A stretch of 64,000 nucleotides of DNA from Ignavibacteriota bacterium (GCA_963794025.1 CAWCCK010000022.1:120937-184936); one strand, 5' to 3'. Counted from the first letter of the stretch, positions 3,515-44,910 are shown. The notes: generated from the letters alone by a model not told the origin. A program made the numbers and translations.

Positions 3515-3675
3515 TCAAATTAGACCCCGAAGGGGAAAAAATAAAGCCAACCTGTTTGTCCGCAATGTGCTCGCGGGGAATATCAAGATTGTTGCGGAAA
3601 TAAAGTTTATTCAAGGGAATAGGTGCCTATCATCTAAACTACAATATACGAAGAAATTGCCGCTCGCCAGGGTGT

Positions 3676-3702
3676 GTCGGGCTGGAAGCGCCGACCTACG
3701 CG
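3676..3702 (+). repeat. Intergenic half-copy of the 27-bp palindromic element GTCGGGCTGGAAGCGCCGACCTACGCG.
   Basis: The same 27-mer occurs (with 1 mismatch) at 32705-32731 and as an inverted dimer at 26460-26510. It contains the internal hairpin GTCGG...CCGAC. Confidence 0.7.
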
Positions 3703-4060
3703 GCAAATTTCAATAAATCTTTCGGAATCACTTGACATTGCCACTTTAAGTTCGTATATTGGGAGTGCGGTGATGGGCACCTATCCGGGGAAATTATGAA
3801 AGATGAAATGGGGGAGGGTGCGAGTTCATTGAAAATTGCGTGGGGCTTGTGGAATGTGGATAAGCTATTAGGAAGTCTGTTGAAATCCACTGTATTGAGC
3901 GAGATTGACTCAAAAAAGCTACAGTTTATGAATTCCTAATGCAAAAAAAAATAATAAGCACCTATTTCAAGTAGCAAGCTATCCATTAATAACCCATCGG
4001 CAAGCTACGGAGCAGAACTCGGCAAAAGCGTGTTTTGTGGCACTCTAAATTTTTTATTAC

Positions 4061-5665
4061 ATGACCAAGACGAAAATACCTGCATTCGAGAACGAGACCT
4101 ACAAAGATTACACTCAGCCCCGCGAGCGCAAGGCGATGGAAGCTGCGCTCCAAAAAACGGGCGATGCGCTGGGCAAAATTTATCCGCATGTCATCGGCGG
4201 CAAGCGCATTGGGACGAGCGAGGCGATCGCTTCGCGCAATCCGGCGCGTCCGAGCGAAGTGATCGGTAACTTTGCGAAGGGCACCACCCAACATGCGGAA
4301 CTTGCGCTGCAAACGGCATCGAAAGCGTTCCTGACGTGGAGCAAAGTTCCGTATGAGAAACGCGCGAACATTGTTTTTAAGGCTGCGAAGATCACAAAGC
4401 GTCGTCGGTACGAAATTAACGCATGGATGGTGCGGGAAGTCGGTAAGAACTGGGCGGAAGCTGATGCCGATACCGCCGAAGCTATCGACTTTCTGGAATT
4501 TTATGCGCGCGAGATGATGCGTTTCGGTGGGCCGCAGCCGTTGCATCAGTTCCCAGGCGAAAAAGATTGGCTGGAATATATTCCGCTGGGCGTCGGTGTT
4601 ATCGTTCCACCGTGGAACTTCCCGTTTGCGATATTGGTGGGGATGTCCGCCGCAGCTATTGTGACGGGCAACACCATAGTTCTCAAGCCCTCCAGCGATT
4701 CGCCGATGATGGGCTGGCTGTTCCATGAGATCATGGAGGAAGCCGGACTTCCGTCCGGCGTGCTGAATTTCCTGACGGCACCGGGCGGCGAAGTGGGAGA
4801 TTATCTGGTGAATAGTACGATCACGCGGTTCATTTCGTTTACGGGTTCTAAGCAAGTGGGATTGCGAGTCGCGCAGAATGCCGCAACACCACGCGAAGGA
4901 CAGAAATGGATCAAGCGCGTCGTTGCAGAAATGGGAGGGAAAGATGCGATCGTCGTTGCGAAGGACGCCGATCTCGATTCGGCAGCGGATGGAATAGTTA
5001 CCAGCGCGTATGGGTTCCAGGGACAGAAATGTTCCGCATGTTCACGCGCGATCATCGAGCAATCGGTGTATCCGAAGATGGTAGAGAAAATTGCAAGTCG
5101 GGTGAAAGCATTAGAGATCGGCGACCCGACGAAGAATGTACGCATCGGGCCAGTCGTGAATGAAAAGGCATTTAATAGCATCATGAGCTATATCGACATT
5201 GGCCGCAAAGAGGGACGCGTTGTTGCCGGCGGCGCGCGATCGGGAACCGAAGGCTACTTCATCCAGCCGACCGTCGTTGCCGATATTGCTCCGAACGCAC
5301 GACTGGCGCAGGAAGAGATTTTCGGTCCGGTGCTAGCGCTTATTCCGGTGAAAAATTTTGACGAAGCTCTCGAAGTGGCGAACAATACCGAATATGGTTT
5401 GACCGGAGCCGTTTATTCAAAGAGCAAGAAGAATATCGAGCGGGCGAAGAAGGAATTTTTCGTTGGTAACCTTTATATCAATCGCAAATGTACCGGCGCG
5501 ATGGTCGGGGCGCATCCATTTGGTGGGTTCAACATGTCCGGTACGGATTCGAAAGCCGGCGGGTATGATTATCTGCTGCATTTTATGCAGGGGAAGAGTA
5601 TTGCGGAGAAGGATATGGCAGTGAAGAAAATCGTGAAACGAAAAATTTCGAAGAAGAAGAAATAA
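4061..5665 (+). CDS. rocA: L-glutamate gamma-semialdehyde (1-pyrroline-5-carboxylate) dehydrogenase, aldehyde dehydrogenase family.
   Basis: Strong collinear similarity to Bacillus RocA from memory: NWAEADADTAEAIDFLEFYAR, VIVPPWNFPFAI, EMGGKDAIVV, FQGQKCSACSRAII, NNTEYGLTGAVYS, GTDSKAGG. There is an unusual poly-Lys C-terminal tail (KRKISKKKK). Confidence 0.9.
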   Translation: MTKTKIPAFENETYKDYTQPRERKAMEAALQKTGDALGKIYPHVIGGKRIGTSEAIASRNPARPSEVIGNFAKGTTQHAELALQTASKAFLTWSKVPYEKRANIVFKAAKITKRRRYEINAWMVREVGKNWAEADADTAEAIDFLEFYAREMMRFGGPQPLHQFPGEKDWLEYIPLGVGVIVPPWNFPFAILVGMSAAAIVTGNTIVLKPSSDSPMMGWLFHEIMEEAGLPSGVLNFLTAPGGEVGDYLVNSTITRFISFTGSKQVGLRVAQNAATPREGQKWIKRVVAEMGGKDAIVVAKDADLDSAADGIVTSAYGFQGQKCSACSRAIIEQSVYPKMVEKIASRVKALEIGDPTKNVRIGPVVNEKAFNSIMSYIDIGRKEGRVVAGGARSGTEGYFIQPTVVADIAPNARLAQEEIFGPVLALIPVKNFDEALEVANNTEYGLTGAVYSKSKKNIERAKKEFFVGNLYINRKCTGAMVGAHPFGGFNMSGTDSKAGGYDYLLHFMQGKSIAEKDMAVKKIVKRKISKKKK

Positions 5666-5667
5666 AA

Positions 5668-6827
5668 TTATCGAATCACAAAATTTTCGGTTACAATAGA
5701 AGTTCCGGAGGAAACGCCATTCGCTTCGAGTTCGCATGTATAATTCCCGGCGGGTATGCCGGCAAGATCGAGCGTTTTGCTCCACGATCCAGCGTTCATT
5801 GAAATTTGATTAAACTCCATTCGAACAATTCTTCCGAGGAGATCGAGAATGCGTATCGTAACGAAGCTATGCTCCGGCAGGGTAAAAAAGAGTTCCACCT
5901 TCGATTGTGCGGGATTGGGAACAATGCTTTCTATTTCGATAAATGGCTCGGACGGGGTTCGCTGTTTGCACGGATATTGATACATTGCTGAATTCCGTGC
6001 CCTCTAACAAAGGCGAATGCTGCCGCCAGGACGCGGGTCGCTCCGCTTGTTAGGTCGTTCTCAAGCGAATCTTGCGGAGCTATCTGATAAGGGTTCGACC
6101 AATCGAACGCATAAAGAATGGTATTGATCGATTGATTGTAAAACGAGATCCCTGCGCCACTATCGGATGGCGTAAGCGGGTGCTTCGCGTAAGAATACGC
6201 TAAATAGTTCACAATAGGCCCAACCTGCGGGGTTTTGATTGCGGGGCTTACTACGTTTGGAGAATCGGATATGATGTAGTCGGCGTAAGTCCAATACGCA
6301 GGCTGCTGCCCTACAATTCCCCCATGATAAATTCCAGTATCGGGCGATTTAGCGACATATTTCACATGCAACCACGATTGCAAAAATTCCGTATCGATCG
6401 AAACGCCATTCGGCATGAGGGAACCATGTTCGTAGGCAATGTTCTGGCCTGCGATGACGAAGGACTTTTTGCAATCCGATGTTCCGGCTTTCAGGAATTT
6501 TTCTACTTCCGCAATTTCCCTGGCGCTGAGTCCGGCTTGTCCGCTTGGCTCTCCAGGAACAACATCCATTGTGGGATCGCCGGACGACCAGATTACGACG
6601 GAATACGGAGTGTAATCTATCGTGTCGCTTCCGGCTTGATTTCGGTCTAACGTATCGAATGTAGGAATTCCGAGGCGGCTAAATGCAAGTTCCACAGAAT
6701 CGCGATTATTTCGCCCGAATTGCGTAAGCCCATTAAAACTTAGCATGATTTTCGGACTTTGAAATTGCGCAAATGCAGCCGGAACTTCGAAAGCACAGAG
6801 GAATGCAGCGATAATCAAGTACTTCAT
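5668..6827 (-). CDS. Secreted protein (signal peptide) with a type IX secretion C-terminal sorting domain. The reading frame is interrupted by an apparent frameshift near 5945-5955.
   Basis: ORF 5931-6827 has an N-terminal signal peptide (MKYLIIAAFLCAFEVPAAFAQ). ORF 5668-5985 encodes a typical T9SS C-terminal domain (IVPNPAQSKVELFFTLPE...GNYTCELEANGVSSG...). The two frames overlap by about 55 nt around the codons for SEP. Confidence 0.6.
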
Positions 6828-6943
6828 GTCGTATCATCCTGACACGGCACGAGGCCCGAAAGTTACATTGACTTTTCAAAATCAAAAATAAAAATATAAC
6901 TCCCAGGCTTCCGCCCGGGAGCTAAAATAATCGGGATCGAATT

Positions 6944-7347
6944 CTACCCCATCATAGCCATCACAGCCCCTGCAATAGCAAGGCCGACCGTCGTATAACC
7001 GGTATCGATGATCCAAAGCAGCGTGGATTTGCCATGCCAATTATAGTTCACCCAAAGGGATCCGCCAGCTATGCCAAGCCCTGCTACCGCGCCGATCTTC
7101 GCAGAGCGCATCATGTCGCCGCCATGCGCATAGTGCAGCAGAAAGCCAGTGCGATAACTGCAAGCAGATTGCCCAAGAAGCTTTTCAGCATCATTTGCAT
7201 CATCGCGGCGCCCTTGGGAGGGTTATCCATTTTGATGCCCGATTCGCGCGCCCATATCTTGCTAAAAAGCACTTGATACCACAACGATCCGAAAAAGAAA
7301 TACACGATCGCAGCCACTAAAACCGACAGCCAGTTGATGTTTGCCAT
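6944..7347 (-). pseudogene. DUF1761-family small membrane protein split by an apparent frameshift near 7110-7150. It is either a pseudogene or a sequencing error.
   Basis: The N-terminal part (MANINWLSVLVAAIVYFFFGSLWYQ...) ends at the stop at 7111-7113. The C-terminal part (...GSLWVNYNWHGKSTLLWIIDTGYTTVGLAIAGAVMAMMG*) continues in another frame to 6944. Together they recreate the DUF1761 pattern. Confidence 0.55.
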
Positions 7348-7700
7348 ACGCGGGAAGTTTAAATTATGAAATGGGAAAAAGCACGTTAATTGAAGCGAAG
7401 ACGGGACGCGCGAGCGATACATGCCAACGATATTTCAGATGATCGTCAACGATGTTAGCTAACATGCCTCCGAATCCGTATGCAAACATACGAAACTTTC
7501 AGGCGAAAGTCAAGTCCTTTCATAAATTAACTGCGTACTACTCTCCGCTCTTCCACGAGGCTTTCCATTCGCCTTTCTTTCTTCTCCATTCATCTTTGGC
7601 TTGCTCGCGTTCTTCCGCAGTCATGTTCTGCCAACGTTCCCATCCACCTTGCCAGGGGCCACAATAGTCCGGACCGGATCCCATGTTCCAGTTCCGTCGC

Positions 7701-7916
7701 TTACCCCATTTCCACGGTGGGCCGCAGCGTTTCCAACTTTCTCCATCCGCGATGCCGGCCTTTAAATCCTACCAGTATTCTGCTGAGCAATAACAGCCCA
7801 ACCGATTGCCAATAGCTCAGCCATGGCCCGTGAAATAGTTCTGGAATGAGCGCATTCCATAACAGCTGGACGATCCAGCCCAATAAAAAAATTGCAATGA
7901 TAAACATAAAATCCAA
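7701..7916 (-). CDS. Small membrane protein immediately downstream of the ECF sigma factor, possibly an anti-sigma factor. A charged, Trp-rich tail continues in another frame to about 7560.
   Basis: 71-aa ORF with two hydrophobic helices, located downstream of the ECF sigma gene on the same strand. The downstream frame encodes WKRCGPPWKWGKRRNW...EEREQAKDEWRRKERR, which suggests another frameshift. Confidence 0.3.
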   Translation of the reverse strand: MDFMFIIAIFLLGWIVQLLWNALIPELFHGPWLSYWQSVGLLLLSRILVGFKGRHRGWRKLETLRPTVEMG

Positions 7917-7988
7917 TAATCCTTTCTTGCCATTGTTTGCAATGGCGTGTACGATCGGTTCCTCGGAACCAATTACCTCAAGTGTGTT

Positions 7989-12564: not shown

Positions 12565-13347
12565 ATGAACTTCATTTATACTATTTCTCTTCCGCTGCTT
12601 GCGGCGTTATCGGTTGTCATTGCCGTAGCATTGTCGCTTGGCGGGCTTGCGCTGTTTCACCGCATGGTGAATACCGACGAGCTTCGGGAAAGCCACGATG
12701 TCGCCGGTTTTGTGTATGCTGTCGTCGGCGTGATCTACGCGGTACTGCTGGCGTTCGTGGTGATCGTGGTGTGGGAACAGTTCCGCAATGCGGATGACAT
12801 CGCGGAGAACGAGGCCATGCACATCGGTAATGTCCGTCAGCTTGCGAAAGCGTTCCCGGATTCTGTTTCCAAAGCGATCTCGACCAACGTGGAGGACTAC
12901 GCGCAATCGGTCATCACGCGCGAATGGCCGGCGATGGCCCAGGGCCACTCCGATCGTCAGACGTATGAGTATTCGAAAAAACTGTGGAACACGTTTTACG
13001 AATTTCATCCTTCGCCGACGGAACAGCCGTATTACAACGAAGCCTTGCGGGAACTCACAAGCTTTAACGATGCTCGGCGTTTGCGCATTATCGGTATCGA
13101 TGGAACGATGCCGACGATCATGTGGACGCTGCTCTTAGGCGGTGGAATTATTTGCATCGGGTTCACGTATCTATTTGCTACGCCGCATAAGTTTACGCAA
13201 TACCTCATCACGGGTCTTCTCGCTGCGATGATCGCCGTCACGCTGTTTCTGATCGCGGAGATGAACCATCCCTATCGCGGCGGCATGAGCCTCCAGCCGG
13301 ACGGATTCGAATTCGTGCTGCACGGCCCGGCTGCACTGAAGGAGTGA
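12565..13347 (+). CDS. DUF4239-family (bestrophin-like) membrane protein.
   Basis: Two N-terminal TM helices and two C-terminal TM helices. The motifs GFVYAVVGVIYAVLLAFVVIVVWEQF and EA.HIGNV are typical of DUF4239. Confidence 0.55.
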   Translation: MNFIYTISLPLLAALSVVIAVALSLGGLALFHRMVNTDELRESHDVAGFVYAVVGVIYAVLLAFVVIVVWEQFRNADDIAENEAMHIGNVRQLAKAFPDSVSKAISTNVEDYAQSVITREWPAMAQGHSDRQTYEYSKKLWNTFYEFHPSPTEQPYYNEALRELTSFNDARRLRIIGIDGTMPTIMWTLLLGGGIICIGFTYLFATPHKFTQYLITGLLAAMIAVTLFLIAEMNHPYRGGMSLQPDGFEFVLHGPAALKE

Positions 13348-13359
13348 GGAATCTGTGTT

Positions 13360-13788
13360 TCAGACTGGAACGTTTCTCCAATTACCGATCTCAAGATCGA
13401 AGCCAAGATCGCGTATTCGCTGAAAGTGACGCTCATTTCCGGTGATGAGTGGAAGACGATAGAGGATGGCTGTTGCCGCAATAATTGGATCAATGACGCC
13501 AATCGGAATTCCGCGCCGATCGAGTTCGGCGAGTATCTGTCCGGCAAGCTGGGCTTCTTCTGTTCTTATGGGAAGAATCTCGTGTGCTTCGAATACTTCA
13601 AGTAAGGTTGGAAACGCTTCTGGATGTCGTGTTCGGTGAAGTCCTTTTGAAACTTCGAGCACGGTTGCAGCGGATAACGTCAGAACTCCATGCTCGGACA
13701 AATAAGATTTAGCAACACGTTTTACGGAAAGACATCTGCCTTTAACTACCTCGGAAAAAATATCGGTATCGAGCAGGGACTTATCCAT
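13360..13788 (-). CDS. vapC: PIN-domain ribonuclease toxin VapC.
   Basis: N-terminal LLDTDIFSE with a conserved Asp, PIN-like acidic residues (IDPIIAATA...TGNERHF), about 140 aa, and a small upstream partner gene. Confidence 0.7.
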   Translation of the reverse strand: MDKSLLDTDIFSEVVKGRCLSVKRVAKSYLSEHGVLTLSAATVLEVSKGLHRTRHPEAFPTLLEVFEAHEILPIRTEEAQLAGQILAELDRRGIPIGVIDPIIAATAILYRLPLITGNERHFQRIRDLGFDLEIGNWRNVPV

Positions 13789-13790
13789 TA

Positions 13791-14006
13791 TTATTCATTT
13801 GGTGCGCGAAGCGGGAGGGAACGGGTGTGAATAACGTCAACCATCATCTCGTCAATAATATCTGGCCGGTCGGCAAAGAGACCGATAGGATTTTTAGCCG
13901 ATGGACGTAACGGCTTCTCATGCTCGACAAGATTGCGCACATATTTCTGCGAGCGATAATCGCAATGCTCGCGCTTGGCGTTCTGCGCGATCGAATGTCC
14001 GATCAT
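13791..14006 (-). CDS. Putative VapB-type antitoxin. The start codon is uncertain.
   Basis: Small ORF abutting vapC (3-nt gap). The C-terminal segment NPIGLFADRPDIIDEMM resembles VapB/Phd C-terminal tails. Confidence 0.4.
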   Translation of the reverse strand: MIGHSIAQNAKREHCDYRSQKYVRNLVEHEKPLRPSAKNPIGLFADRPDIIDEMMVDVIHTRSLPLRAPNE

Positions 14007-14159
14007 CTAATTCTACTTGTTTCATTTAATATCTTAAAGGTAAATGTGCAGGATTGGTTTCCACAGCAATTTCTCTGTGCCGTAAAAACGACGGTGCATC
14101 CGAATCAAAATCCCCCTACCACTGTTTCACACCAGCTTTTAACTCAACCCCTAATAAAT

Positions 14160-15557
14160 ATGACTCATAAATGTTTTTGCTGGGCGTGCATACTCGGCGC
14201 GCTTCTCTTAATGGGAATGCTGGTTTCGAGTAATGCCAATGCGCAGACCGCTCCGTTCGTAGAAAAAACGCTGGCGAATGGTTTAGATGTGATCGTCGTC
14301 GAAAACCACATGGTTCCCCTTGTGACGATCGAGCTTGTCGCGAAGAACGGCAGCTTCACCGAGCCGCCGCAATACAACGGCCTCTCGCATTTGTACGAAC
14401 ACATGTTCTTCAAAGCGAATCAGAAATTGCCGTCGCAGGAGCAATTTATGAATGGCTTGGAAGACTTGGGCGGCTCGCTCGGCGTCAGCAACGCAACGAC
14501 GAATCAGGAGCATGTGAACTATTTCATTGTCATTCCGAGCCGGAATATGGATGGGGGAATGGATTTCATGTCCAACGCGATCCGCACGCCGCTCTTCGAT
14601 TCGAATGAATTGAGGAAAGAGACGCACGTCGTGCTCGGCGAGTTCGACCGTAATGAAGCACAGCCGGATTTCAAGCTGCGTTACGCGATGGATTCCGCCG
14701 TGTGGTCGCCGGAATTATTTAGCCGCAAGCAGCAGCTTGGCTTGCGTCCGGCCATTCTTGCCGCCACGCCGGAAATGATGCACACGATCGAGCATCGCTT
14801 TTATATTCCGAACAACATGGCGCTTGTCATTGCAGGCGATGTGAAGCCGGAAGAGGTCTACAAAGAAGCCGAAAAGTATTTCGGACAGGGAATGTGGCCG
14901 AAAGGTCCTGCGCCATTTCCGAAATACGATCCGCCGCCGTTCCCGCCGATCAAAAAGCAGCTGGTTGTCCGCGAAGGAGCGGAGATGCCCTATACGGAGG
15001 TTGACATGACCTGGCAAGGCCCAAGCCTTGGGAAGGATAATGCCGATAGCTATGCCGCAGATGTGTTCCATACTATCATCGGCGAGCGGAATAGTAAGTT
15101 CCAGAAAGACTTAGTCGATAAGCGGTTGGCCTATCAGATAAATTCGGGATGGTTCTCGGAAAAAAATGTCGGCCCGATCATGATTACTGGTTACGTTCCC
15201 ATCAACGCCACAAAGAAAGCGATCAAAGCCATTCAGGATGAGATCACACATTGGACGGATCCCGATTATTTCACCGACGAAGAGCTTGCAACCGCCAAGC
15301 GCATCATGGAAGGCGACCGGATTTACGAAACGGCTTCCGCTACGGAATTTGCAACGAACACGCTCCCATTATGGTGGGCCTCTGCCGGGCTTGATTACTA
15401 TATCCATTATATCGAGAACGCGAAAAAAGTTACCCGCGCCGATATTAATCGTTATCTCAATCGGTGGATCGAAGGAAAACCCTACGTGCTCGGCGTAACC
15501 ACCAACCAAGCTGCACTCGATAAACTTAATCTCAAGCCGGAGGATCTTTTACAATGA
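14160..15557 (+). CDS. M16-family (pitrilysin/insulinase-like) zinc peptidase, the active subunit. It has a signal peptide; the start is chosen at MTHKCF.
   Basis: Inverted zinc-binding motif HLYEHMFFKA (HxxEH) and signal peptide CILGALLLMGMLVSSNANAQ. Confidence 0.8.
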   Translation: MTHKCFCWACILGALLLMGMLVSSNANAQTAPFVEKTLANGLDVIVVENHMVPLVTIELVAKNGSFTEPPQYNGLSHLYEHMFFKANQKLPSQEQFMNGLEDLGGSLGVSNATTNQEHVNYFIVIPSRNMDGGMDFMSNAIRTPLFDSNELRKETHVVLGEFDRNEAQPDFKLRYAMDSAVWSPELFSRKQQLGLRPAILAATPEMMHTIEHRFYIPNNMALVIAGDVKPEEVYKEAEKYFGQGMWPKGPAPFPKYDPPPFPPIKKQLVVREGAEMPYTEVDMTWQGPSLGKDNADSYAADVFHTIIGERNSKFQKDLVDKRLAYQINSGWFSEKNVGPIMITGYVPINATKKAIKAIQDEITHWTDPDYFTDEELATAKRIMEGDRIYETASATEFATNTLPLWWASAGLDYYIHYIENAKKVTRADINRYLNRWIEGKPYVLGVTTNQAALDKLNLKPEDLLQ

Positions 15558-25335: not shown

Positions 25336-25439
25336 AATTACTTGGTTCGTGCAGGGGCGCGTCTGCTTCTCTACGGCGAATCTTCGTAATTGTTGTATTT
25401 TTGTAGCGAATAATTTCTACCCTGTTATTCGATAGAGAT

Positions 25440-28400
25440 TTGAACCCCAAAACACATTCCAACGAACTCCGCCTGTTCGTCTCCTCGACGTTCCGCGACC
25501 TCATGCCCGAACGCGAGCAGTTGGTGAAAAAAATCTTCCCGCGTATCCGCAAAGAGTGCCGCGAACGTGGCATCGAATTCACCGAAATTGACCTGCGCTG
25601 GGGAATAACCGAGGAAGAATCGCGCACCGGCAAAACCATTCGTATCTGCCTGGAAGAGATCGACCGCTGCCGACCGTATTTCATCGGAATTATCGGCTCG
25701 CGCTACGGATGGGTTCCCGGCATCACCGAGATCGAAAAAGACGAAGAAATGCTGAAAGAATTCCCGTGGCTCCGCGACTATGCCGCCAGCGATAAAAGCA
25801 TTATCGAAATGGAATTCGCGCATGGCGCGATCCTACGGAAAAACGACAGCGCGTTCTTTTATGAACAGGGGAACAACGATTCACAGTACTCAAATGACAA
25901 AATGGACTCAAATGACAAGTCCTTTCAGTCCATTTCGTCCCTTGAGTCCCTTAAACATACCCTTCAATCCACCGGAGTTCCCTATCGCCGCTTCACCGAT
26001 CCCGAAGAATTAGGCGAGCAGGTATTTCAGGACATCCTCACCATTCTCGACCGCGATTTTCCGCAAAAGAAAGAGATGACGCCGCTCGATCACGAACGCG
26101 CCGAGCACGAAGCGTATTCGCGGAACCGGCGGCAATCGTATGTTGCAAATCCGGAGTATTACGAGGCATTTGCAAAATATGTGGAGTCCGATGGCCCGCC
26201 GCTTATTATTTGGGGAAGATCGGGTTTGGGCAAGAGCGCGCTCATGGCGTATCTGGCGCATGAATATCAAACGCGGAACCCGAATGCCTTCGTCGTCCAG
26301 CATTTTATCGGCGCAGCCGAAGGCAGCGATCCCGAAGACGTGATGCGTCAGGTGATGATGGAAATAAAAGAACGCTATCAGCTTGCGGACACGATCCCCA
26401 CCGACGAAAACGCGCTCCGGGAAGAATTCCCAGTCTGGCTGGCGAAAGTAGGAGGGGATGGTCAGGCTGAAAGCACTGACCTACGCGTAGGTCGGCGCTT
26501 CCAGCCCGACACCCTCATCCTTTTGATCGATGCGCTCAACCAGCTTACAGGCATTGCGCCGGAAATGCACTGGCTGCCGGATTTCATTCCCGCGAATGTG
26601 CGCCTCATCGTTTCAACAACAACCGAGAGCCTTCCCCTTGCACAATTACGCGAGCGGAAGTGGAATGAATTGGAACTTCAGCCGCTAACCGAACAGCAGC
26701 GCGAAGCTATCGCGCAGGGTTTCCTGAATCGCTTTCACAAATCGCTGCCGCTGAGCGATCTGCACACGCTTTCGGCAAATCCCAAATCGTCGAGTCCGCT
26801 GTTTTTGCGGACGGTGCTGGAAGAGCTTCGCATTTTCGGGCATCACACTACGCTGCACGAAGAGCTTGAGGATTATTTAGCGAGCGCGGATGAAAGAGAA
26901 CTATTCCAGAAAGTGCTCGCCCGCATGGAGCGCGATCATGGCGAAGACGCCGTTCGTAATGTCATGACCGCCATCTGGGCGTCGCGGCACGGGCTGTCGG
27001 AATCCGAACTGATGCAGATCACCGGCAAGCCGCGCATGGAACTATCGGAACTTATGATCGCGATGGAATACCACCTCATGACCCGCGAAGGGTTCCATAC
27101 CTTCTTCCATAATTATTTGCGCGAAGCGGTGGAGATGCGCTACATGCCGGATGAAGTAGCGCGTAAAGCTGCACACGCGAAAATCGGGGAATATTTCTCC
27201 ACAAGAGAATATGGCCATCGACGAAGAGACGAAGAACCCTGGCAATGGACCGAGGCGGGTGAAAAAGAGAGGCTGATCGGATCGCTTGCCGATCTCGCTA
27301 TGCTAAATCTCTTCATACAAAGTCAGAGGACGCACGAGTTAGTTACCCATTGGGTGCATGCCGATATGGATCGTGTTGCAGGGAGTTATGCCGATTCTTA
27401 TGGCAAGTTACCGGATAATGTTGGCAATGCGGAGCGTCAAGAGCAACTGCGGAACATCGGCAAGATATTGCTGGCCGCTTCAAGGCCAATGGACGCGCAG
27501 GGGTACTTAGAGCGATCGCTTGAATTTACGCGAAAGATTCATGGAATTAAAAGCTTTCAAGCAGCGGAGGCGTTAGAAGATCTGGCTGAATTGCAATACG
27601 AACTTGCCGATTTCAATGGCGCAAAAAACTCACTGCAAGAAGCTGTTTCCATTCACGAAGAAGCGAATAGTTCACCGCTGAAAGTAGCGGCGCGCTATAG
27701 TTCCCTCGCTTCCGTTGCGTACCAGCAGCAACAGTATGAAGAGGGATTGATGTTTTGTAATAGTGCGCTTGCGGTTTTGCCCGAAGGCGGATGGGATGAA
27801 GACACATTGCGCGCTGATATTTTCACCAATATGAGCGGTTTGTATTACAGGCAAAAGAAATTGAATGAGGCAATTTCTGCTGCGGAACAGGCTGTTGAAG
27901 CTCAAAGAAATTTGCATGGCGATTCCGACAATCATACGCTGATCGCCATGAACAATCTCGCATCCATTCTCTCAGCAGCCGGTAGATATGTGGAATCGGA
28001 ACAATTGTTTCTATCCCTCATAGTAACCTTGAAAATGAATTTGGGGAAAACCCACCTTAATGTTGCTAGTGCGCTGAAAGGATTTGCTCTTGCTTTAGAA
28101 CGTGCCAATCAAATACCAAGAGCGAAGGCAGCAATTAAAGAAGCGTTAGCAATATTTCTCAAACATCTTCCATCCGATCATCCAGAACTGCTTTCTGGAC
28201 AATTGGCTGTAGGTGCCTATGAATTTCTGGAAGGCAATTTCAGTGAAGCGGAGAAAATATATCGACAATATGAACCACTTCGCGCCACCATTCTCGGCTT
28301 CACTCATCCCACTGTGCTGCGCGGCCGTGAGCGTTATATTGAAATACTTCTCGCTCTCGGCAAAAATAGAAGAAGCCTCCATGCTCAAATTGGAACTGGA

Positions 28401-28535
28401 GGCTGCTTTATAAAGACGATCAGAATTCAGAATAGAATCAAAACTACAAAAATGCTATCATCTTGTACTGCTGTCCGAAATCATTATAACAATCGAGACC
28501 GAAGCCCCGCCATTGGCAGCGTTCATGCTGGCTGA
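25440..28535 (+). CDS. TIR-like (DUF4062/STIR-type) - STAND P-loop NTPase (NACHT/NB-ARC-like) - TPR-repeat protein. This is a bacterial NLR-like candidate antiphage defence protein.
   Basis: The N-terminus RLFVSSTFRDL...ICLEEIDRC matches the TIR beta-strand and the S.WC..E catalytic-Glu motif. Walker A is GRSGLGKSALMAY and Walker B is TLILLIDALNQ. The C-terminal ~400 aa carry TPR_10/12-like repeats. An in-frame insertion of a palindromic repeat lies at 26460-26510. Confidence 0.7.
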   Translation: MNPKTHSNELRLFVSSTFRDLMPEREQLVKKIFPRIRKECRERGIEFTEIDLRWGITEEESRTGKTIRICLEEIDRCRPYFIGIIGSRYGWVPGITEIEKDEEMLKEFPWLRDYAASDKSIIEMEFAHGAILRKNDSAFFYEQGNNDSQYSNDKMDSNDKSFQSISSLESLKHTLQSTGVPYRRFTDPEELGEQVFQDILTILDRDFPQKKEMTPLDHERAEHEAYSRNRRQSYVANPEYYEAFAKYVESDGPPLIIWGRSGLGKSALMAYLAHEYQTRNPNAFVVQHFIGAAEGSDPEDVMRQVMMEIKERYQLADTIPTDENALREEFPVWLAKVGGDGQAESTDLRVGRRFQPDTLILLIDALNQLTGIAPEMHWLPDFIPANVRLIVSTTTESLPLAQLRERKWNELELQPLTEQQREAIAQGFLNRFHKSLPLSDLHTLSANPKSSSPLFLRTVLEELRIFGHHTTLHEELEDYLASADERELFQKVLARMERDHGEDAVRNVMTAIWASRHGLSESELMQITGKPRMELSELMIAMEYHLMTREGFHTFFHNYLREAVEMRYMPDEVARKAAHAKIGEYFSTREYGHRRRDEEPWQWTEAGEKERLIGSLADLAMLNLFIQSQRTHELVTHWVHADMDRVAGSYADSYGKLPDNVGNAERQEQLRNIGKILLAASRPMDAQGYLERSLEFTRKIHGIKSFQAAEALEDLAELQYELADFNGAKNSLQEAVSIHEEANSSPLKVAARYSSLASVAYQQQQYEEGLMFCNSALAVLPEGGWDEDTLRADIFTNMSGLYYRQKKLNEAISAAEQAVEAQRNLHGDSDNHTLIAMNNLASILSAAGRYVESEQLFLSLIVTLKMNLGKTHLNVASALKGFALALERANQIPRAKAAIKEALAIFLKHLPSDHPELLSGQLAVGAYEFLEGNFSEAEKIYRQYEPLRATILGFTHPTVLRGRERYIEILLALGKNRRSLHAQIGTGGCFIKTIRIQNRIKTTKMLSSCTAVRNHYNNRDRSPAIGSVHAG
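26460..26510. repeat. Inverted dimer of the 27-bp element (GGTCAGGCTGAAAGCACTGACCTACGCG / TAGGTCGGCGCTTCCAGCCCGAC), inserted in-frame inside the NLR-like gene.
   Basis: The right arm is the exact reverse complement of 3676-3702. It encodes GQAESTDLRVGRRFQPD, the same frame as the STDLR peptide from copy 32705-32731. Confidence 0.7.
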
Positions 28536-28964
28536 TATTGTGAATTGAGTATTAGTTGAGTTAGCTACAATGGAGGGTGGGATATCCCAACTCGAGAGCG
28601 AGTTATTGTAGATCGAAGTGCCAACAGTTCCAGGCGAGCCGGGCTGCGCAACCAATACCCATGTTTCGGTAACAGACGGCGCCGATTGAGAAAATGATAG
28701 TTCCAGGGTTGTGCCAACAGCAAGACCGCCCCAGCCCATGTCATCCCCACTTAGATTTGCAAGTGGAGTAGGTGCCCATGCCACAACAGGCTGCAAATAA
28801 GAAGTAGCGTCGTTGTTCAACGGCCCCTTGAATGTAATGGCGATATCGAGCGCGCAATTGAATGTTACATTCAGACACTGCGCCGAATTTCTTGCCCAGG
28901 GCGTCGCTGGTGGCTGCGCTGGTGTCATCAGCGCCACGTTGAGTGTAGGATTAGGAACTCCCAT
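28458..28964 (-). CDS. Hypothetical Ser/Thr/Asn/Ala-rich protein on the opposite strand, between the NLR-like gene and the SLOG gene.
   Basis: 168-aa ORF whose end overlaps the last 78 nt of the 25440 ORF. It has no recognisable motifs. Confidence 0.3.
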   Translation of the reverse strand: MGVPNPTLNVALMTPAQPPATPWARNSAQCLNVTFNCALDIAITFKGPLNNDATSYLQPVVAWAPTPLANLSGDDMGWGGLAVGTTLELSFSQSAPSVTETWVLVAQPGSPGTVGTSIYNNSLSSWDIPPSIVANSTNTQFTISASMNAANGGASVSIVIMISDSSTR

Positions 28965-29385: not shown

Positions 29386-30399
29386 ATGGAAACCACCACA
29401 ACATCGCTCGAACAGATTCCCGTACACGCTGACGCCTCTATCGAATCGCCGGTGGAGCAGTTCATCGACGAGGAGCTGATCCACGCGCACCATCATAGCC
29501 ACCACGCGCTTCCGTGGACGGCGCGTCCTGCGAAGGAATCCGGCCCGCTGCCGCTTGTTATCGGCGTTTCCGGCCACCGCGATCTGCGAGATGAGGACAT
29601 CCCCAAGCTAACGGAAGTGGTGCTTGCCGAGTATGCAACGCTCCGAAAAAATTATCCTTCCACGCCGATCACGCTGCTTTCTGCGCTTGCCAATGGCGCG
29701 GATCGTCTGCTTGCGCATCTGGCGCTTAGTTCTGGAATGCGGCTTGCCGTTGTGCTTCCGATGCCCATCGATCTGTATGAAACGGATTTCGATGCGGCGT
29801 CTCTGATAGAATTTCACGAGTTGATTTCAAAGGCAGAATATTTTTCCGATCTGCCGATCATGCCGGGTCTTACGCGGGAGTTAATTAGCGTGCATGGCAT
29901 CGGCCGCGAGATGCAATACGCGCAAGTGGGCGCGTATATCGCGGCGCACAGCGCCATTCTTATCGCGCTGTGGGATGGAGTGGAACTTAATCTGGTCGGC
30001 GGCACGTCGCAGGTGGTGCGGTTCAAGCTCGATGGTATTCCGGAACCGTACGCGCCGCCGCACAGCGAACTCGACGCGCCGGATAGCGGCCCCGTCTATC
30101 ATATTGTGACGCCGCGTGCTATCAATCCCCATCCGGCACATGCGTTCACGGTGCATCGGTTGTATCCCGCCGGGTTCCGTTCCCATGTCGAAGCCGATAA
30201 AGCGTATGACGACGTGTATTCCCGCATGGAAACGTTTAACGAGGATTCTATCAAGTATTCCGAAGATCTGAAAGAACATTTCCGCGCCAGCAAGGAATAT
30301 ATGTTCCCAGCGCACGCGCATCAGTTGGTGGAGCATCATATCATATCATCGCCGGAAAAAGGAGCATGGTGCAAAAGGGAACCATCATCCGGCCAATAA
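29386..30399 (+). CDS. SLOG-superfamily (DprA/LOG-like Rossmannoid) protein, a putative nucleotide-binding sensor.
   Basis: The core LVIGVSGHRDL...LSALANGADRLLAHLALSSGMRLAVVLPMPIDLYETDF...ILIALWDGVELNLVGGTS follows the DprA/LOG pattern (Gly-rich loop after strand 1, the G..G.D..AH motif, then VVLP...YP-like). Gap to the membrane-protein gene is 13 nt. Confidence 0.55.
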   Translation: METTTTSLEQIPVHADASIESPVEQFIDEELIHAHHHSHHALPWTARPAKESGPLPLVIGVSGHRDLRDEDIPKLTEVVLAEYATLRKNYPSTPITLLSALANGADRLLAHLALSSGMRLAVVLPMPIDLYETDFDAASLIEFHELISKAEYFSDLPIMPGLTRELISVHGIGREMQYAQVGAYIAAHSAILIALWDGVELNLVGGTSQVVRFKLDGIPEPYAPPHSELDAPDSGPVYHIVTPRAINPHPAHAFTVHRLYPAGFRSHVEADKAYDDVYSRMETFNEDSIKYSEDLKEHFRASKEYMFPAHAHQLVEHHIISSPEKGAWCKREPSSGQ

Positions 30400-30412
30400 T
30401 GACCCCAATGAA

Positions 30413-31228
30413 TTGCCGCCATTATTAAAAGAAGATCTCGATTTTTACGCCATCGCCGATGTGCTTTCGCAGCGATTTCAAAAGCGCACCAAAACGACGA
30501 TCCAGTTACTGCTGACCTTCGTATTTTTCGCTGCGCTATTCTTCGAACTCTATTCCGGATTGTTCGAAGAGCCGGCGATGCTCGGGCTGTATCTGGGAAT
30601 GTTTCTTTGTTCGTTCCTCGTCTATTATTGGGCCGAGCGGCATGGTTACCAAACCCGGTACTTGGATTACCGCGCCTTAGCCGAAGGACTTCGTGTGCAA
30701 TTTTTCTGGAAATTAGCCGGAGTCGAAGATTCCGTTGCCGATTTTTACATGCGAAAACAGCGCAGCGAACTCGACTGGATCCGCAACGCCATCCGCGCCT
30801 GCATGATCGGGAACTCACAGCACAGCACCAATAAATTGCTCGATGAAGAAGCCCAGCGCGACCGCCTGAACCTTGTGCTTAAACATTGGGTGGAAGACCA
30901 GGCGAAATACTTTGCGAAAGCTGCCCACCGCGAGCACGAGGAGCTGCATGGCCGCGAGCGGATGATCTCACTGCTTTTTGGCGTCACGCTCGCGCTCGCT
31001 GCGGCGCATGTGATTTTGTTCGGTCATAAAAATGAATTTTTGTTGCTTTTAATTGGCGTGCTTCCCGTTGTTGCCGCGCTCTTGCATAGCTATCTGCAAA
31101 AAAATGCCTTTGCCGAACACAAGCGCCAGTACGACCGCATGAGCGTGTTCTATCATCGCGCAACCGTGCATTTGACTAAACTTATCGGTGAAGATCGCCT
31201 TGTGGATGCTCAGAAAATTCGTTGCTGA
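30413..31228 (+). CDS. Four-TM (2TM - helical linker - 2TM) SLATT-like membrane protein, a predicted effector partner of the SLOG protein.
   Basis: Hydrophobic helices at about residues 30-50, 55-75, 175-195 and 200-220, with a charged helical segment between them. It is co-directional with and 13 nt downstream of the SLOG gene. Confidence 0.5.
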   Translation: MPPLLKEDLDFYAIADVLSQRFQKRTKTTIQLLLTFVFFAALFFELYSGLFEEPAMLGLYLGMFLCSFLVYYWAERHGYQTRYLDYRALAEGLRVQFFWKLAGVEDSVADFYMRKQRSELDWIRNAIRACMIGNSQHSTNKLLDEEAQRDRLNLVLKHWVEDQAKYFAKAAHREHEELHGRERMISLLFGVTLALAAAHVILFGHKNEFLLLLIGVLPVVAALLHSYLQKNAFAEHKRQYDRMSVFYHRATVHLTKLIGEDRLVDAQKIRC

Positions 31229-31447: not shown

Positions 31448-31888
31448 CTAAGTAGTGGTGAAACCTGTGGGTCGTTTACGAAAAATCAATCGAACCAAAA
31501 GAAAGAACCAATATATAAACCACGCTAACCAAAAAAGGCCGATAATTCCATTCGATTTCGTAGCTCCGGCGGCGATCATCGTTCCCAGAAATATCAGCAC
31601 TTTCCACCAATGAAGATGATGGGTGAAATGCGTGGCGGGAGCCTCAGCATTGGCTTCCGAATGTGGCAGCGCGCTTGACGTTTCATCAGAATGCGTTGCA
31701 TTCGGCGGCGAGATACGTCCTCGGTACGAGATGCCGGTTCCGGGAAGTCCGACGTTGCCATACGTGCCGCGTTTCCCAAGCGTAACGCTCGCGCCGCGCA
31801 CACCCACGGACGTGCTAATACCTGACCTGCTGATGTTCAAGTGAACACCAGGGATAATTTTAATGCGGCGTCTGAATCGAAGACCCAT
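31448..31888 (-). CDS. DUF4236-domain protein with a C-terminal membrane anchor.
   Basis: The N-terminus GLRFRRRIKIIPGVHLNISRSGISTSVGVRGASVTLGKRGTYGNVGLPGTGISY is the characteristic DUF4236 repeat. The C-terminus has two hydrophobic helices. Confidence 0.65.
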   Translation of the reverse strand: MGLRFRRRIKIIPGVHLNISRSGISTSVGVRGASVTLGKRGTYGNVGLPGTGISYRGRISPPNATHSDETSSALPHSEANAEAPATHFTHHLHWWKVLIFLGTMIAAGATKSNGIIGLFWLAWFIYWFFLLVRLIFRKRPTGFTTT

Positions 31889-42198: not shown

Positions 42199-44910
42199 AT
42201 GATTAACTCGATGTTTTCGAAAAAGCAAGCTCTGATTGCTTGCTTCACATTGATTCTTTCCACTGGCACGCTTCACGCCCAGCCTTATGCCAACAATTGG
42301 ACTGAAATCACCGATGGCGGCGATACCATCTACCATACGTGGCCGCCGTCCGATAGCGTGTGGCTTCATGACCAGATCGTAATTAAGTTCCGAAGGGGAA
42401 TGCTCGATTATGCACAACTCTGTTACAATTGCGACACAATCGTGAGTGGCGGATTAGCTTCCGATTCACCACGGTATTTCCCAACCTGCAAGCAGACCCT
42501 CATGACACAGGAGTTCGATACAAGTGTTGTTATCGACTTAGCGACGAAAATCATTTTACAAACGCATGGCTTGTCCTATCTTCGCCGAATGACTGCTGCG
42601 AATCCATGTGCAGATACTCTTAGCATTACTCGGCTGGGCGATACTATTCCAATGGATCATTACGATTGGATGGTCGCGCAATTCAATAACGATACGAGTG
42701 TGCTCACTACCTTAGCGGCATTGTATGCACCTGGTATGAAAGGAATAGAAATCGCTGAACCGGTCTATCTCATGCAATTAGCGCATTTACCACGCACTCC
42801 AAACGATCCGTGGTGTATCGACACGCCCCACAATCCTTGGCCCTACTTTCAAATTAGTCTCAATGGGATTGATTGGGGCGATGGTCGCTGGGGTATCGGT
42901 ATGCAATCGGCTTGGGGTTACGATGTTGGGAGTACGCCGGGGCATGCTCCACTTGTCGTTTCAGTGATTGATAATGGCATTGATTACTGGCGGTGCGATT
43001 TCGGTGGAGAACCAATTCCAAATAGTAAGGTCAGCGGCGGATGGGATTTTTTAAGAAACAACGACACAACCATCTACTTGGGAACGTGCCCACTTGGCGA
43101 TGATGGTGGCGCAGGTGCTTCTAATCATGGGACACCCATTGCAGGTATCATCGGCGGACTTACGAATAACGAAGGGTGTAATGTATATGCAGGCTTACCC
43201 AATGCGATGGCGGGTATTGCTGGCGGATGGGGCCCACTTTATGGAGCAACCAATCTCGGAACCGGCGTGCAACTTCTTGGATACAATGTCATTGATCCTT
43301 CAACATGCACCCCATTAAGTCAATTTCCTCGCAGCGATTGGGCCGCCAGCGCGATACTGGAATCGGCAGGTAACTCAGTCAACGGTCATTACGGAACCAA
43401 AGCTGACGTCATAAATGCAAGCTGGTACATATCGCCAAATGCATCTTTGCTTGCAATCCGGTCTGCAGTAGCGGAATCATTCCGAAACAAGGTCTCGTTC
43501 GTTGCATGTGCAGGAAATTTAAATAGTGAAGCTCTATTTTGGCCAGCCGGTATTGAACCAGCCAGTGAGGTTACTTCTGTCGGGGCTGCTACTAAAGCAG
43601 CAACGGGATCAGCGGCAGATATTATTTCAAGGGCTGATTATTCAAACTATAACCATTACACCGATCTTGTCGCGCCGGGGGGAGAGCCAGAAAGCGACCG
43701 CGATGGCTTAGATAATAGCGTCTATTCTCTTCAAGATGACACCCTTGATGGCCCAACATACGCATCCAACGATCCTGACAGAGGGAGCTATTTTAGTGGC
43801 ACATCCTTTGCCGCACCTCATGTTGCTGGAGTTGCGGCGTTGATCCGAGACTATCTGCAAACGGGCGGCTATATGAGCGATCCCAATGATCAGTATTATT
43901 TCGAAGACATCGAAGGCATTCTCAAGGCTTCGTCGCTTGATTTTGGGTACAATCCAGCCAGCCCACTTCCACAACCACCCACCGACCCGTGGGCTGCTCC
44001 ATATCACCCTGATCCAGATGGAGTTACAAATTATCAGGTTGGATTCGATGAGGAAGCAGGCTGGGGGTTATTGCAAGCCGATCAGGCATTTTATATGCTC
44101 GATCCCGCTGGCCTCGGGTATCGGCTCTTTCATTACTACGTAAGTTCACTTGATGTGGCCTATGGCGCATGGAGTGCCACACCCCAAAAGATACATATTT
44201 ATAATACAATCGGTGGCCCTACCCCTCTTTATCCTGCAACAGGAACCTATATGGCTGAAGTCAGGGAAGATACCGCAAACATAACGTATGCTGGTATTGA
44301 CACCACACTTCCGGTCTATGCCTGGGGATCTACGACTCCTAAAACTGGTTGGTCAAACACAACAAATGTGGGTGGTCTCGGATGGTCCAATTGGGAAGAA
44401 AACTGGTGTGATGTCAAGATGGACACCCACATACCCTCTCGCGATCATGGCAACGGAATCGTTCCTGGAATTCGTCATGATTATTCCAGAACATTAACAG
44501 CACATACCTATCAGTATAGATTATGGGATTCCACAGGGACAAATTACTTGGGGATTTATCCTGATTCGACCGGGGCTGTCGGCGTGAGTTTGTATGTAAC
44601 TATTTTCGGTGTGCCATGTACAGGGTGCAAAATCGCCGACGGCGGCGATCAGGATACCGTTCCAAAGCAAACTTTTCGTGTCTGGCCACCTGTTGCTAAT
44701 TCGATGGTGACAGTCTTAATCGGTGGCGATCAATTAGCTTCGCAATTTGTTCTCGTGGATGCGCTCGGAAGAATTGTTCGACAGCAGAATATTTCGGAAA
44801 ATACACAGCAATTCGAAATACCTACTTCCGATCTTGCATCGGGGTTATATCTTGCACGGCTTATCTATGGGAATGAAATTGAGCAAGCAAAGTTCGTCGT
44901 TCAGCATTAA
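42199..44910 (+). CDS. Subtilisin-like S8 serine peptidase with a type IX secretion C-terminal domain.
   Basis: Catalytic triad motifs VSVIDNGID, NHGTPIAG and GTSFAAPHVAGVAALI, a signal peptide, and a C-terminal T9SS domain (GLYLARLIYGNEIEQAKFVVQH). Confidence 0.8.
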   Translation: MINSMFSKKQALIACFTLILSTGTLHAQPYANNWTEITDGGDTIYHTWPPSDSVWLHDQIVIKFRRGMLDYAQLCYNCDTIVSGGLASDSPRYFPTCKQTLMTQEFDTSVVIDLATKIILQTHGLSYLRRMTAANPCADTLSITRLGDTIPMDHYDWMVAQFNNDTSVLTTLAALYAPGMKGIEIAEPVYLMQLAHLPRTPNDPWCIDTPHNPWPYFQISLNGIDWGDGRWGIGMQSAWGYDVGSTPGHAPLVVSVIDNGIDYWRCDFGGEPIPNSKVSGGWDFLRNNDTTIYLGTCPLGDDGGAGASNHGTPIAGIIGGLTNNEGCNVYAGLPNAMAGIAGGWGPLYGATNLGTGVQLLGYNVIDPSTCTPLSQFPRSDWAASAILESAGNSVNGHYGTKADVINASWYISPNASLLAIRSAVAESFRNKVSFVACAGNLNSEALFWPAGIEPASEVTSVGAATKAATGSAADIISRADYSNYNHYTDLVAPGGEPESDRDGLDNSVYSLQDDTLDGPTYASNDPDRGSYFSGTSFAAPHVAGVAALIRDYLQTGGYMSDPNDQYYFEDIEGILKASSLDFGYNPASPLPQPPTDPWAAPYHPDPDGVTNYQVGFDEEAGWGLLQADQAFYMLDPAGLGYRLFHYYVSSLDVAYGAWSATPQKIHIYNTIGGPTPLYPATGTYMAEVREDTANITYAGIDTTLPVYAWGSTTPKTGWSNTTNVGGLGWSNWEENWCDVKMDTHIPSRDHGNGIVPGIRHDYSRTLTAHTYQYRLWDSTGTNYLGIYPDSTGAVGVSLYVTIFGVPCTGCKIADGGDQDTVPKQTFRVWPPVANSMVTVLIGGDQLASQFVLVDALGRIVRQQNISENTQQFEIPTSDLASGLYLARLIYGNEIEQAKFVVQH

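Follow-up and report, generated by a model that had tools for sequence, protein, structure and literature searches.

A three-module NLR-like gene in an Ignavibacteriota genome

We analysed 64,000 nucleotides of DNA from an Ignavibacteriota bacterium (GCA_963794025.1 CAWCCK010000022.1:120937-184936; this whole stretch is referred to as the window) and focused on a plus-strand gene for an NLR-like protein at positions 25440-28535 (Table 1). The gene is a single unbroken open reading frame (ORF) of 1031 amino acids (aa) that begins at a TTG codon and ends with a stop codon at 28533-28535. An in-frame stop lies at 25404, 36 nt 5' of the TTG. From the N-terminus, the encoded protein consists of a DUF4062 domain (residues 9-206), a NACHT domain (235-430), helical and winged-helix domains (to ~605) and about eight tetratricopeptide repeats (TPRs) of the kinesin light chain (KLC) type (to ~985). 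A first-pass annotation, made from the sequence alone, had described this gene as a TIR-like domain fused to a STAND NTPase and a TPR array. Its coordinates and three-part layout proved correct, far beyond chance, with the ORF, the Pfam domains and the motifs all found. The ORF, domains, Walker motifs and TPRs of that description stood; its choice of catalytic glutamate did not, and its cluster of conflict genes proved weak.

The deposited protein (P0001) is 100% identical to our translation but begins at Met22 (ATG at 25503). This start drops the betaA strand, including F13, S16 and R19. Because betaA and a short leader before it are present in every homolog, and because no canonical start other than the TTG at 25440 retains betaA, we consider the TTG the better start. 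The public annotation thus probably lacks 21 N-terminal residues.

In the full-length AlphaFold2 (AF2) model (pLDDT 87.6, pTM 0.74), a P-loop fold is followed by a helical domain, then by a winged helix that bears a beta-hairpin and finally by ~8 TPR helix pairs. Foldseek ranked Avs3 in complex with phage terminase (E 6e-10) and Apaf-1 (E ~3e-7) as the best PDB matches of this model; further matches included MalT and TPR proteins such as kinesin light chain. NCBIfam contained nothing specific for the protein, and we observed no paralog of the gene elsewhere in the window. A pseudogene or chance ORF was ruled out by the intact ORF, the full-length homologs and the confident model. The gene likely encodes a single-polypeptide NLR-like (STAND) sensor-effector protein.

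Table 1. Features of the NLR-like gene and of other genes in the window
Feature	Position	Strand	Residues	Remarks
Whole gene, NIR(DUF4062)-NACHT-TPR NLR-like	25440-28535	+		ORF list, translation; P0001 100% identical
TIR-like NADase domain, predicted (DUF4062 / NIR / TeTIR)	25464-26057	+	9-206	
Predicted elements, part 1			9-85	betaA 9-16, alphaA 22-42, betaB 46-50, RWG loop 51-55, alphaB 66-77, betaC 81-85
Predicted elements, part 2			95-206	inserted helices 95-116, alphaC 121-131, betaD 138-143, alphaD 160-178, betaE 182-185, alphaE 188-206
RICLEEIDRC (helix alphaB)	25641-25670	+		C70 (= TEP1 C959) and invariant E73
KSIIEMEF (on alphaC)	25794-25817	+		holds E125
Predicted catalytic Glu	25812-25814	+	E125	codon GAA; aligns with TEP1 E1008; invariant in 117/117 aligned homologs
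NACHT nucleotide-binding domain	26142-26729	+	235-430	Pfam NACHT; AF2 P-loop strand/helix order
Walker A, GRSGLGKS	26214-26237	+	259-266	G262, G264, K265, S266 invariant
Walker B, LILLID(ALNQ)	26514-26543	+	359-368	LILLID 359-364; D364 invariant
Helical and winged-helix domains of the STAND module	26730-27254	+	431-605	ends in invariant EEPWQW; end of conserved chassis
Hypervariable sensor	27255-28394	+	606-985	lead-in helices and ~8 KLC-type TPRs (TPR_12/TPR_10)
C-terminal tail	28395-28532	+	986-1031	~46 aa; 0 BLAST hits, pLDDT <50, GC 42%
SLOG-like ORF, 337 aa	29386-30399	+		weak YAcAr match, E 0.04
SLATT/DUF4231 ORF, 271 aa	30413-31228	+		Pfam match at or below cut-off
Fused restriction-modification-type methylase, 877 aa	881-3514	-		N6_Mtase and Methylase_S; ~22 kb from NLR gene

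The N-terminal domain retains the residue set of a proven NADase

Pfam DUF4062 (PF13271) matched residues 11-93 with 53 bits (cut-off 24.7), and the domain has a TIR-like alpha/beta fold with five parallel strands. A phmmer search with residues 1-200 returned 10,476 cluster representatives at E<=1e-3. The closest sequence match with a solved structure was the TIR-like domain of human TEP1 (PDB 11gz_A; E 6e-22, query residues 9-142), with 37.5% identity over 128 aligned residues. Neither Pfam TIR nor TIR_2 was present among the 25 best of the 26 matches listed at E<=1 (weakest listed E 0.17). We therefore refer to the domain as TIR-like and not as a TIR; in published analyses, DUF4062 forms a cluster separate from TIR. 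The earlier reading of the N-terminus as TIR/STIR thus survived as homology to the NADase domain of TEP1, with DUF4062 above its cut-off, but no canonical Pfam TIR model supported it.

To place the active site, we aligned the domain with TEP1. The offset between the PDB chain and TEP1 numbering was fixed at 893, and 10 of 10 published residue identities agreed with the chain. The equivalents of these ten residues in the NLR-like protein are F13, S16, R19, R25, R53, W54, K65, C70, R88 and E125. Mutation of any one of TEP1 F902, R914, R942, C959, R976 or E1008 abolishes its NADase activity (TeTIR preprint 10.64898/2026.09.21.753143). All six are present in the NLR-like protein, as F13, R25, R53, C70, R88 and E125. 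Across the homologs aligned (55-119), R25, R53, W54, C70 and E125 were invariant, and F13, S16 and R88 were nearly so. The first-pass annotation had taken the glutamate of ICLEEID as catalytic. We observed that ICLEEID forms helix alphaB and that TEP1 E1008 aligns with E125 in KSIIEMEF, on alphaC. From the homology to a proven NADase domain and the intact residue set, we infer that the NLR-like protein can act as an NADase.

A NACHT-type STAND module lies between the N-terminal domain and the TPRs

The Walker A, Walker B and NACHT-like ATPase proposed for the middle of the protein were all recovered. Pfam NACHT matched residues 255-426 above its cut-off of 26.7 (28.2 bits in the full-length protein, 31.3 bits in the excised region), and GRSGLGKS and LILLIDALNQ are both in place. 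HTH_NWD1 matched residues 487-543 with 24-25.5 bits, just below the cut-off of 27. NACHT and HTH_NWD1 were matched by 12 of 12 family members and NPHP3_hel by 7 of 12; most members also matched NPHP3_N and TPR_NPHP3. A helical and winged-helix region after the nucleotide-binding domain and an overall likeness to STAND folds were thus found, through HTH_NWD1 in the whole family and through Avs3, Apaf-1 and MalT in the structure search. A profile of the NACHT region gave only weak matches to PDB sequences (Ras P-loops; SeAvs3, E 0.023; NLRC4, E 0.058), and no close solved relative of the region was found among them. Family-wide, the Walker B strand continues as D-A-L-N-Q, without the acidic D-G-x-D-E of NACHT proteins (N367 in 101/119 homologs, Q368 in 105/119).

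The C-terminal part is a TPR array followed by a disordered tail

The C-terminal TPR array of the first-pass annotation was strongly borne out. Pfam TPR_12 (102 bits) and TPR_10 (63.5 bits) matched from about residue 700 to 980, and the AF2 model contained ~8 helix pairs over residues 663-985. PDB sequence matches of this region were to kinesin light chain TPRs. The tail that follows is predicted to be disordered, is AT-rich and overlaps a convergent 168-aa ORF without a family match (28458-28964, minus strand). The tail may be read-through sequence and not a functional part of the protein, and either the tail or the convergent ORF may be non-coding.

Identity and codon composition break at one junction

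We compared the protein with its relatives, which come from Ignavibacteriota, Kapaibacterium/Kapabacteria and Bacteroidota metagenome-assembled genomes (MAGs) from soil and mire. Residues 1 to ~605 were 70-79% identical in every pairwise comparison among relatives, whereas the residues after ~605 were 17-28% identical in all pairs but two (53% and 55%). Identity was 80-98% up to about residue 560 and collapsed at ~605-620; in 8 of 8 comparisons the collapse fell within ~20 residues past the invariant EEPWQW. GC content at third codon positions (GC3) was ~0.62 in codons 1-600 versus ~0.41 in the sensor and tail. A drop in GC3 inside the gene, by 7-23 points, was observed in 9 of 9 genes (the window gene and eight relatives), and in the window gene it coincides with the collapse in identity. 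The joint break in identity and GC3 is the signature of a conserved effector and switch chassis whose attached sensor evolves fast or has been exchanged.

Just one closer sensor was found, in the fragment P0253 (48-53% identity). A database search with the TPRs alone, which is subject to word-index limits on repeats, returned two proteins. A tentative explanation, which we hold possible but not probable, is that the chassis (residues 1 to ~605) is vertically inherited and that whole sensor cassettes have been swapped again and again at one fixed junction just after EEPWQW. Under the same tentative explanation the cassettes might come from a lower-GC pool of TPR arrays, and divergence would not be gradual. 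If true, bacteria would have their own form of modular receptor diversification, and it would take place at a stable chromosomal slot rather than in a mobile island. The sharp boundary also marks where sensor specificity could be engineered.

The gene is accessory at a conserved chromosomal locus

The gene lies in a variable slot beside a conserved TPR-pyrK-pyrD block and is divergent from the 806-aa TPR gene that heads this block. It is present at the homologous locus in six cases (the window, L001, L003, L005, L006 and L017), and the flanking genes of the other five are 67-94% identical to those of the window. It is absent from the homologous locus in five more (L016, L018, L013, L014 and L015), where the identity of the TPR gene is 76% in L016, 62% in L018 and 54-58% in L013-L015. 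The genome of L013 has its NLR copy elsewhere, at L009. This pattern of presence and absence indicates that the gene is accessory, not housekeeping. Housekeeping-like syntenic conservation was seen in part: one subclade keeps the gene in synteny, but the slot is without it in one close relative and in several more distant ones. A patchy accessory distribution (six present, five absent) is found together with a rapidly diversifying sensor. In L016 the slot is filled by two type IX secretion system (T9SS) cargo genes (2208-7954; 1540 and 375 aa; Por_Secre_tail), between SLOG-SLATT and TPR-pyrK-pyrD. Because it holds other genes there, we regard the slot as a hotspot of gene-content variation.

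Paralogs in L002, L004, L007 and L009 have unrelated surroundings, unrelated upstream genes and no common partner gene, which fits a stand-alone system.

We considered and rejected a multi-gene system, because the small convergent downstream ORFs are not homologous across loci (except one L002/L005 pair) and the upstream genes of the paralogs are unrelated. A link to the divergent 806-aa TPR gene was also rejected, as that gene stays with pyrK-pyrD in genomes without the NLR gene. The L002/L005 exception consists of two genes 3' of the NLR gene (L002, non-syntenic, 12898-14351; L005, syntenic, 12912-14423) that are absent from the window. One encodes an unknown protein (236/239 aa, 47% identity) and the other a Peptidase_C39_2-like protein (241/255 aa, 45% identity). 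This gene pair may travel with some NLR copies.

A predicted NAD+-depleting switch and its alternatives

According to experiments in four 2026 preprints, DUF4062 domains are NADases that mediate phage defence by abortive infection; one of these domains is part of an Avs STAND-TPR protein. Osinski et al. 2026 showed for both TEP1 and Swarozyc, a bacterial defence system, that DUF4062 is a TIR-like NADase, with E1008 as the catalytic residue of TEP1 and R908, R954 and R976 at its active site. Le Mouellic et al. 2026 (bioRxiv 10.64898/2026.09.04.749371) renamed DUF4062 as NIR, reported glutamate-dependent NAD+ depletion and phage defence by an Avs2 with NIR, by Vulcan and by Vesta, and also found NIR in other NLR-like proteins with various repeats. 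Evangelion DUF4062 systems were described by Ibarra-Chavez et al. (2026 preprint).

The Avs/NLR-like interpretation of the TIR-like-STAND-TPR architecture was supported, as DUF4062, NACHT and TPR were each found and the model matched Avs3, Apaf-1 and MalT. We observed an intact gene with three modules, homology to an NADase domain with the full required residue set, an accessory distribution and a fast-diverging sensor. Probably, the gene is an NLR/Avs-like single-gene system in which a sensor trigger leads, through NACHT oligomerisation and NAD+ hydrolysis, to cell arrest. In the predicted sequence of events, the TPR module (residues ~606-985) would bind a trigger, most likely a phage protein, and binding would lift the autoinhibition of the NACHT NTPase. 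NACHT would then bind ATP and oligomerise, which would cluster the N-terminal DUF4062/NIR/TeTIR domains and open their active sites (RWG/BB loop). The clustered domains would hydrolyse NAD+, and NAD+ depletion could arrest the infected cell (abortive infection). The NADase activity, its switching on through oligomerisation, the kind of trigger and the role in defence are all predicted here from homology to characterised proteins.

Several observations weigh against this interpretation. Within a subclade of Ignavibacteriota MAGs the gene keeps its synteny and its N-terminal part is about as conserved as its neighbours, and the gene behaves as a vertically inherited chromosomal gene that is not obviously part of a mobile island. 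Homologs were almost absent from plasmids (2 distant hits), and a search of phages found no homologs. PADLOC gave no match for the gene at E<=1 nor for 10 neighbours, with a library (PADLOC-DB 2.0) that dates from 2023, before the DUF4062 papers. No defence-island location was found, the neighbours being housekeeping genes or genes without an assigned role: housekeeping genes make up the left flank (TPR protein, pyrK, pyrD, methyltransferase, thiolase), we recognised no defence system within ~10 kb, and the paralog loci are also without defence genes. Apart from the 877-aa methylase, we saw no recognisable defence-type gene in the window. The replacement of D-G-x-D-E by D-A-L-N-Q may impair ATP hydrolysis, perhaps leaving binding without efficient hydrolysis. 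For this protein and its close relatives, the argument for defence draws on sequence and homology.

The synteny, the neighbour-like conservation of the N-terminal part, the lack of nearby defence genes and PADLOC matches, and the near absence of the family from plasmids and phages would also fit a protein of this architecture whose NADase is active but whose role is not antiviral. Such a protein would be a fixed STAND switch that responds to an endogenous or environmental cue by lowering NAD+ or triggering dormancy or death; stress, development, or kin or toxin conflict could be the cue. Eukaryotic TEP1 and NPHP3, which have this architecture, are regarded as non-immune STANDs. A sensor that is replaced or hypervariable on a conserved chassis is, however, hard to square with a constant endogenous ligand. 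Presence and absence of the gene at the same locus among close relatives also argues against such a switch, and all bacterial DUF4062 proteins tested so far act in phage defence. We consider this reading unlikely, although it ranks highest among the alternatives.

The N-terminal domain might also be catalytically silent and serve as an oligomerisation or adaptor module that signals by protein-protein contacts, as proposed for NPHP3, NWD1 and most animal TIRs. Human NWD1, NWD2 and NPHP3, which share the architecture, are inactive or weakly active as NADases, and in vitro no activity was seen for three prokaryotic TeTIR domains in isolation; both observations also count against an active enzyme in our preferred reading. 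NPHP3, however, is without the catalytic glutamate, whereas the Ignavibacteriota protein keeps E125 and the five other residues essential in TEP1. Across ~119 homologs, R25, R53, C70 and E125 do not vary, and F13 and R88 hardly vary. Effector domains of STAND proteins are often inactive in isolation, without oligomerisation. In addition, no conserved partner gene lies beside the paralogs, so a silent domain would have nothing to signal to. A silent scaffold is improbable on these grounds.

SLOG-like and SLATT genes downstream

A SLOG-like gene and a SLATT gene lie 0.85 kb downstream of the NLR-like gene on the same strand (Table 1). In L003, L005, L006 and L016 the two form one fused ORF of 633-668 aa. 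In the window they are split by a frameshift in a His/Lys-rich linker (~30340-30415). The split may be genuine, or it may reflect a pseudogene or an assembly error. The first-pass annotation had placed the NLR-like gene in a cluster of conflict genes. The SLOG-like/SLATT pair is indeed present, but its Pfam matches do not rise above cut-off, housekeeping genes fill the left flank, and PADLOC found no match for the NLR-like gene or for 10 neighbours.

In type I Thoeris, SLOG domains read signals made by TIR proteins. By analogy, the TIR-like enzyme could make an NAD-derived signal that the SLOG-like protein reads, opening the fused SLATT membrane effector (29386-31228). SLOG-SLATT is also found near the NLR gene in L003, L005, L006 and L017. 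These co-occurrences all come from one syntenic lineage and are not independent. L016 has SLOG-SLATT without the NLR gene and L001 has the NLR gene without SLOG-SLATT. The four non-syntenic paralog loci are without SLOG/SLATT, and variable opposite-strand ORFs lie between the NLR gene and SLOG-SLATT. The domain assignments of the pair are themselves marginal, and the characterised DUF4062 enzymes yield only ADP-ribose and nicotinamide. Because each gene occurs without the other, a Thoeris-like pairing is disfavoured, and we give it very little credence.

Comparison with known systems

By architecture, the closest tested system is PsAvs2-NIR of Pseudomonas chlororaphis (10.64898/2026.09.04.749371). 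Its single polypeptide likewise carries a DUF4062/NIR domain at the N-terminus, a STAND NTPase in the centre and a TPR-type sensor at the C-terminus, and glutamate-dependent NAD+ depletion and abortive infection have been demonstrated for PsAvs2. Unlike PsAvs2-NIR, the protein described here has an NTPase of the NACHT/NWD1/NPHP3 type, not the Avs2 type. Its sensor is a short KLC-type TPR array of ~380 aa, and its host is an Ignavibacteriota MAG.

By effector sequence, the closest is TEP1. The TIR-like domain of TEP1 (PDB 11gz) and that of the NLR-like protein have the F, R, RWG, C and GSRYG elements and the catalytic glutamate in common, and in both proteins the DUF4062 domain is encoded directly 5' of NACHT. 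TEP1 differs in its N-terminal TROVE/VWA extension, its WD40 repeats and its role in vault and telomerase particles, whereas the NLR-like protein is without the extension and carries TPRs.

By overall layout, the closest are eukaryotic NPHP3 and TTC41 (DUF4062-like, NACHT, TPR), which have the same module order and KLC-like TPRs. Pfam NPHP3_N, NPHP3_hel, TPR_NPHP3 and HTH_NWD1 match the family, and JGI labels homologs 'nephrocystin-3'. Because the NPHP3-specific scores all fell below cut-off (TPR_NPHP3 67.1 versus 100; NPHP3_N 19-20.7 versus 24.8; NPHP3_hel 14.3 versus 27.9), we consider the protein related to NPHP3 but not a member. NPHP3 also differs in being inactive, without the catalytic glutamate that the NLR-like protein keeps, and in having extra N-terminal regions.

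Swarozyc, Evangelion, Vulcan and Vesta (2026 preprints) also contain a DUF4062 NADase with a catalytic glutamate and deplete NAD+ on phage sensing. They differ in having no STAND NTPase and in sensing through a helical auxiliary domain, HEAT repeats or a small ligand-binding domain; many are encoded on plasmids or within defence islands. The bNACHT proteins of clade 16, the TEP1 clade (Kibby et al. 2023), are similar in their NACHT module, N-terminal effector and C-terminal repeats, and a bacterial origin has been proposed for the TEP1 clade (Kibby et al. 2023). No PADLOC bNACHT model matched the protein, and the likeness is one of layout. It is hardly credible that existing hidden Markov models of defence systems would already name the protein, as an Avs with a canonical TIR domain (AVAST type 1-5) or as a bNACHT described before: it has the same tripartite layout and Avs3 as the best structural match of its full-length model, but 0 families of PADLOC-DB 2.0 matched at E<=1, no Pfam TIR or TIR_2 stood among the matches listed, and its NTPase profile reaches SeAvs3 only at E 0.023 and instead fits the NACHT, NWD1 and NPHP3 models.

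The class of NIR domains fused to NLR-like proteins has already been described (2026 preprints), and as a discovery the present protein adds little beyond those. It stands out by its NACHT/NWD1/NPHP3-type NTPase, by pairing NPHP3-like TPRs with an intact active site, by its stable place on the chromosome and by the clean boundary between chassis and sensor. Among the DUF4062/NIR effectors, which have only recently been recognised, it represents an environmentally widespread branch of predicted NADases from Ignavibacteriota, Kapabacteria and Bacteroidota MAGs. It is also a bacterial full-length look-alike of animal NIR-NACHT-repeat proteins and could be a tractable model for how the NADase of such proteins is switched on.

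Other features of the window

We detected no tRNA or Rfam elements in the window. A gene for a DUF4236 protein (31448-31888, minus strand) adjoins the SLATT gene. Genes for T9SS-sorted secreted proteins (subtilase, sortilin/BNR) lie at 42199-44910 and 56751-58850, both on the plus strand, and fit a Bacteroidota-Ignavibacteriota origin of the DNA.

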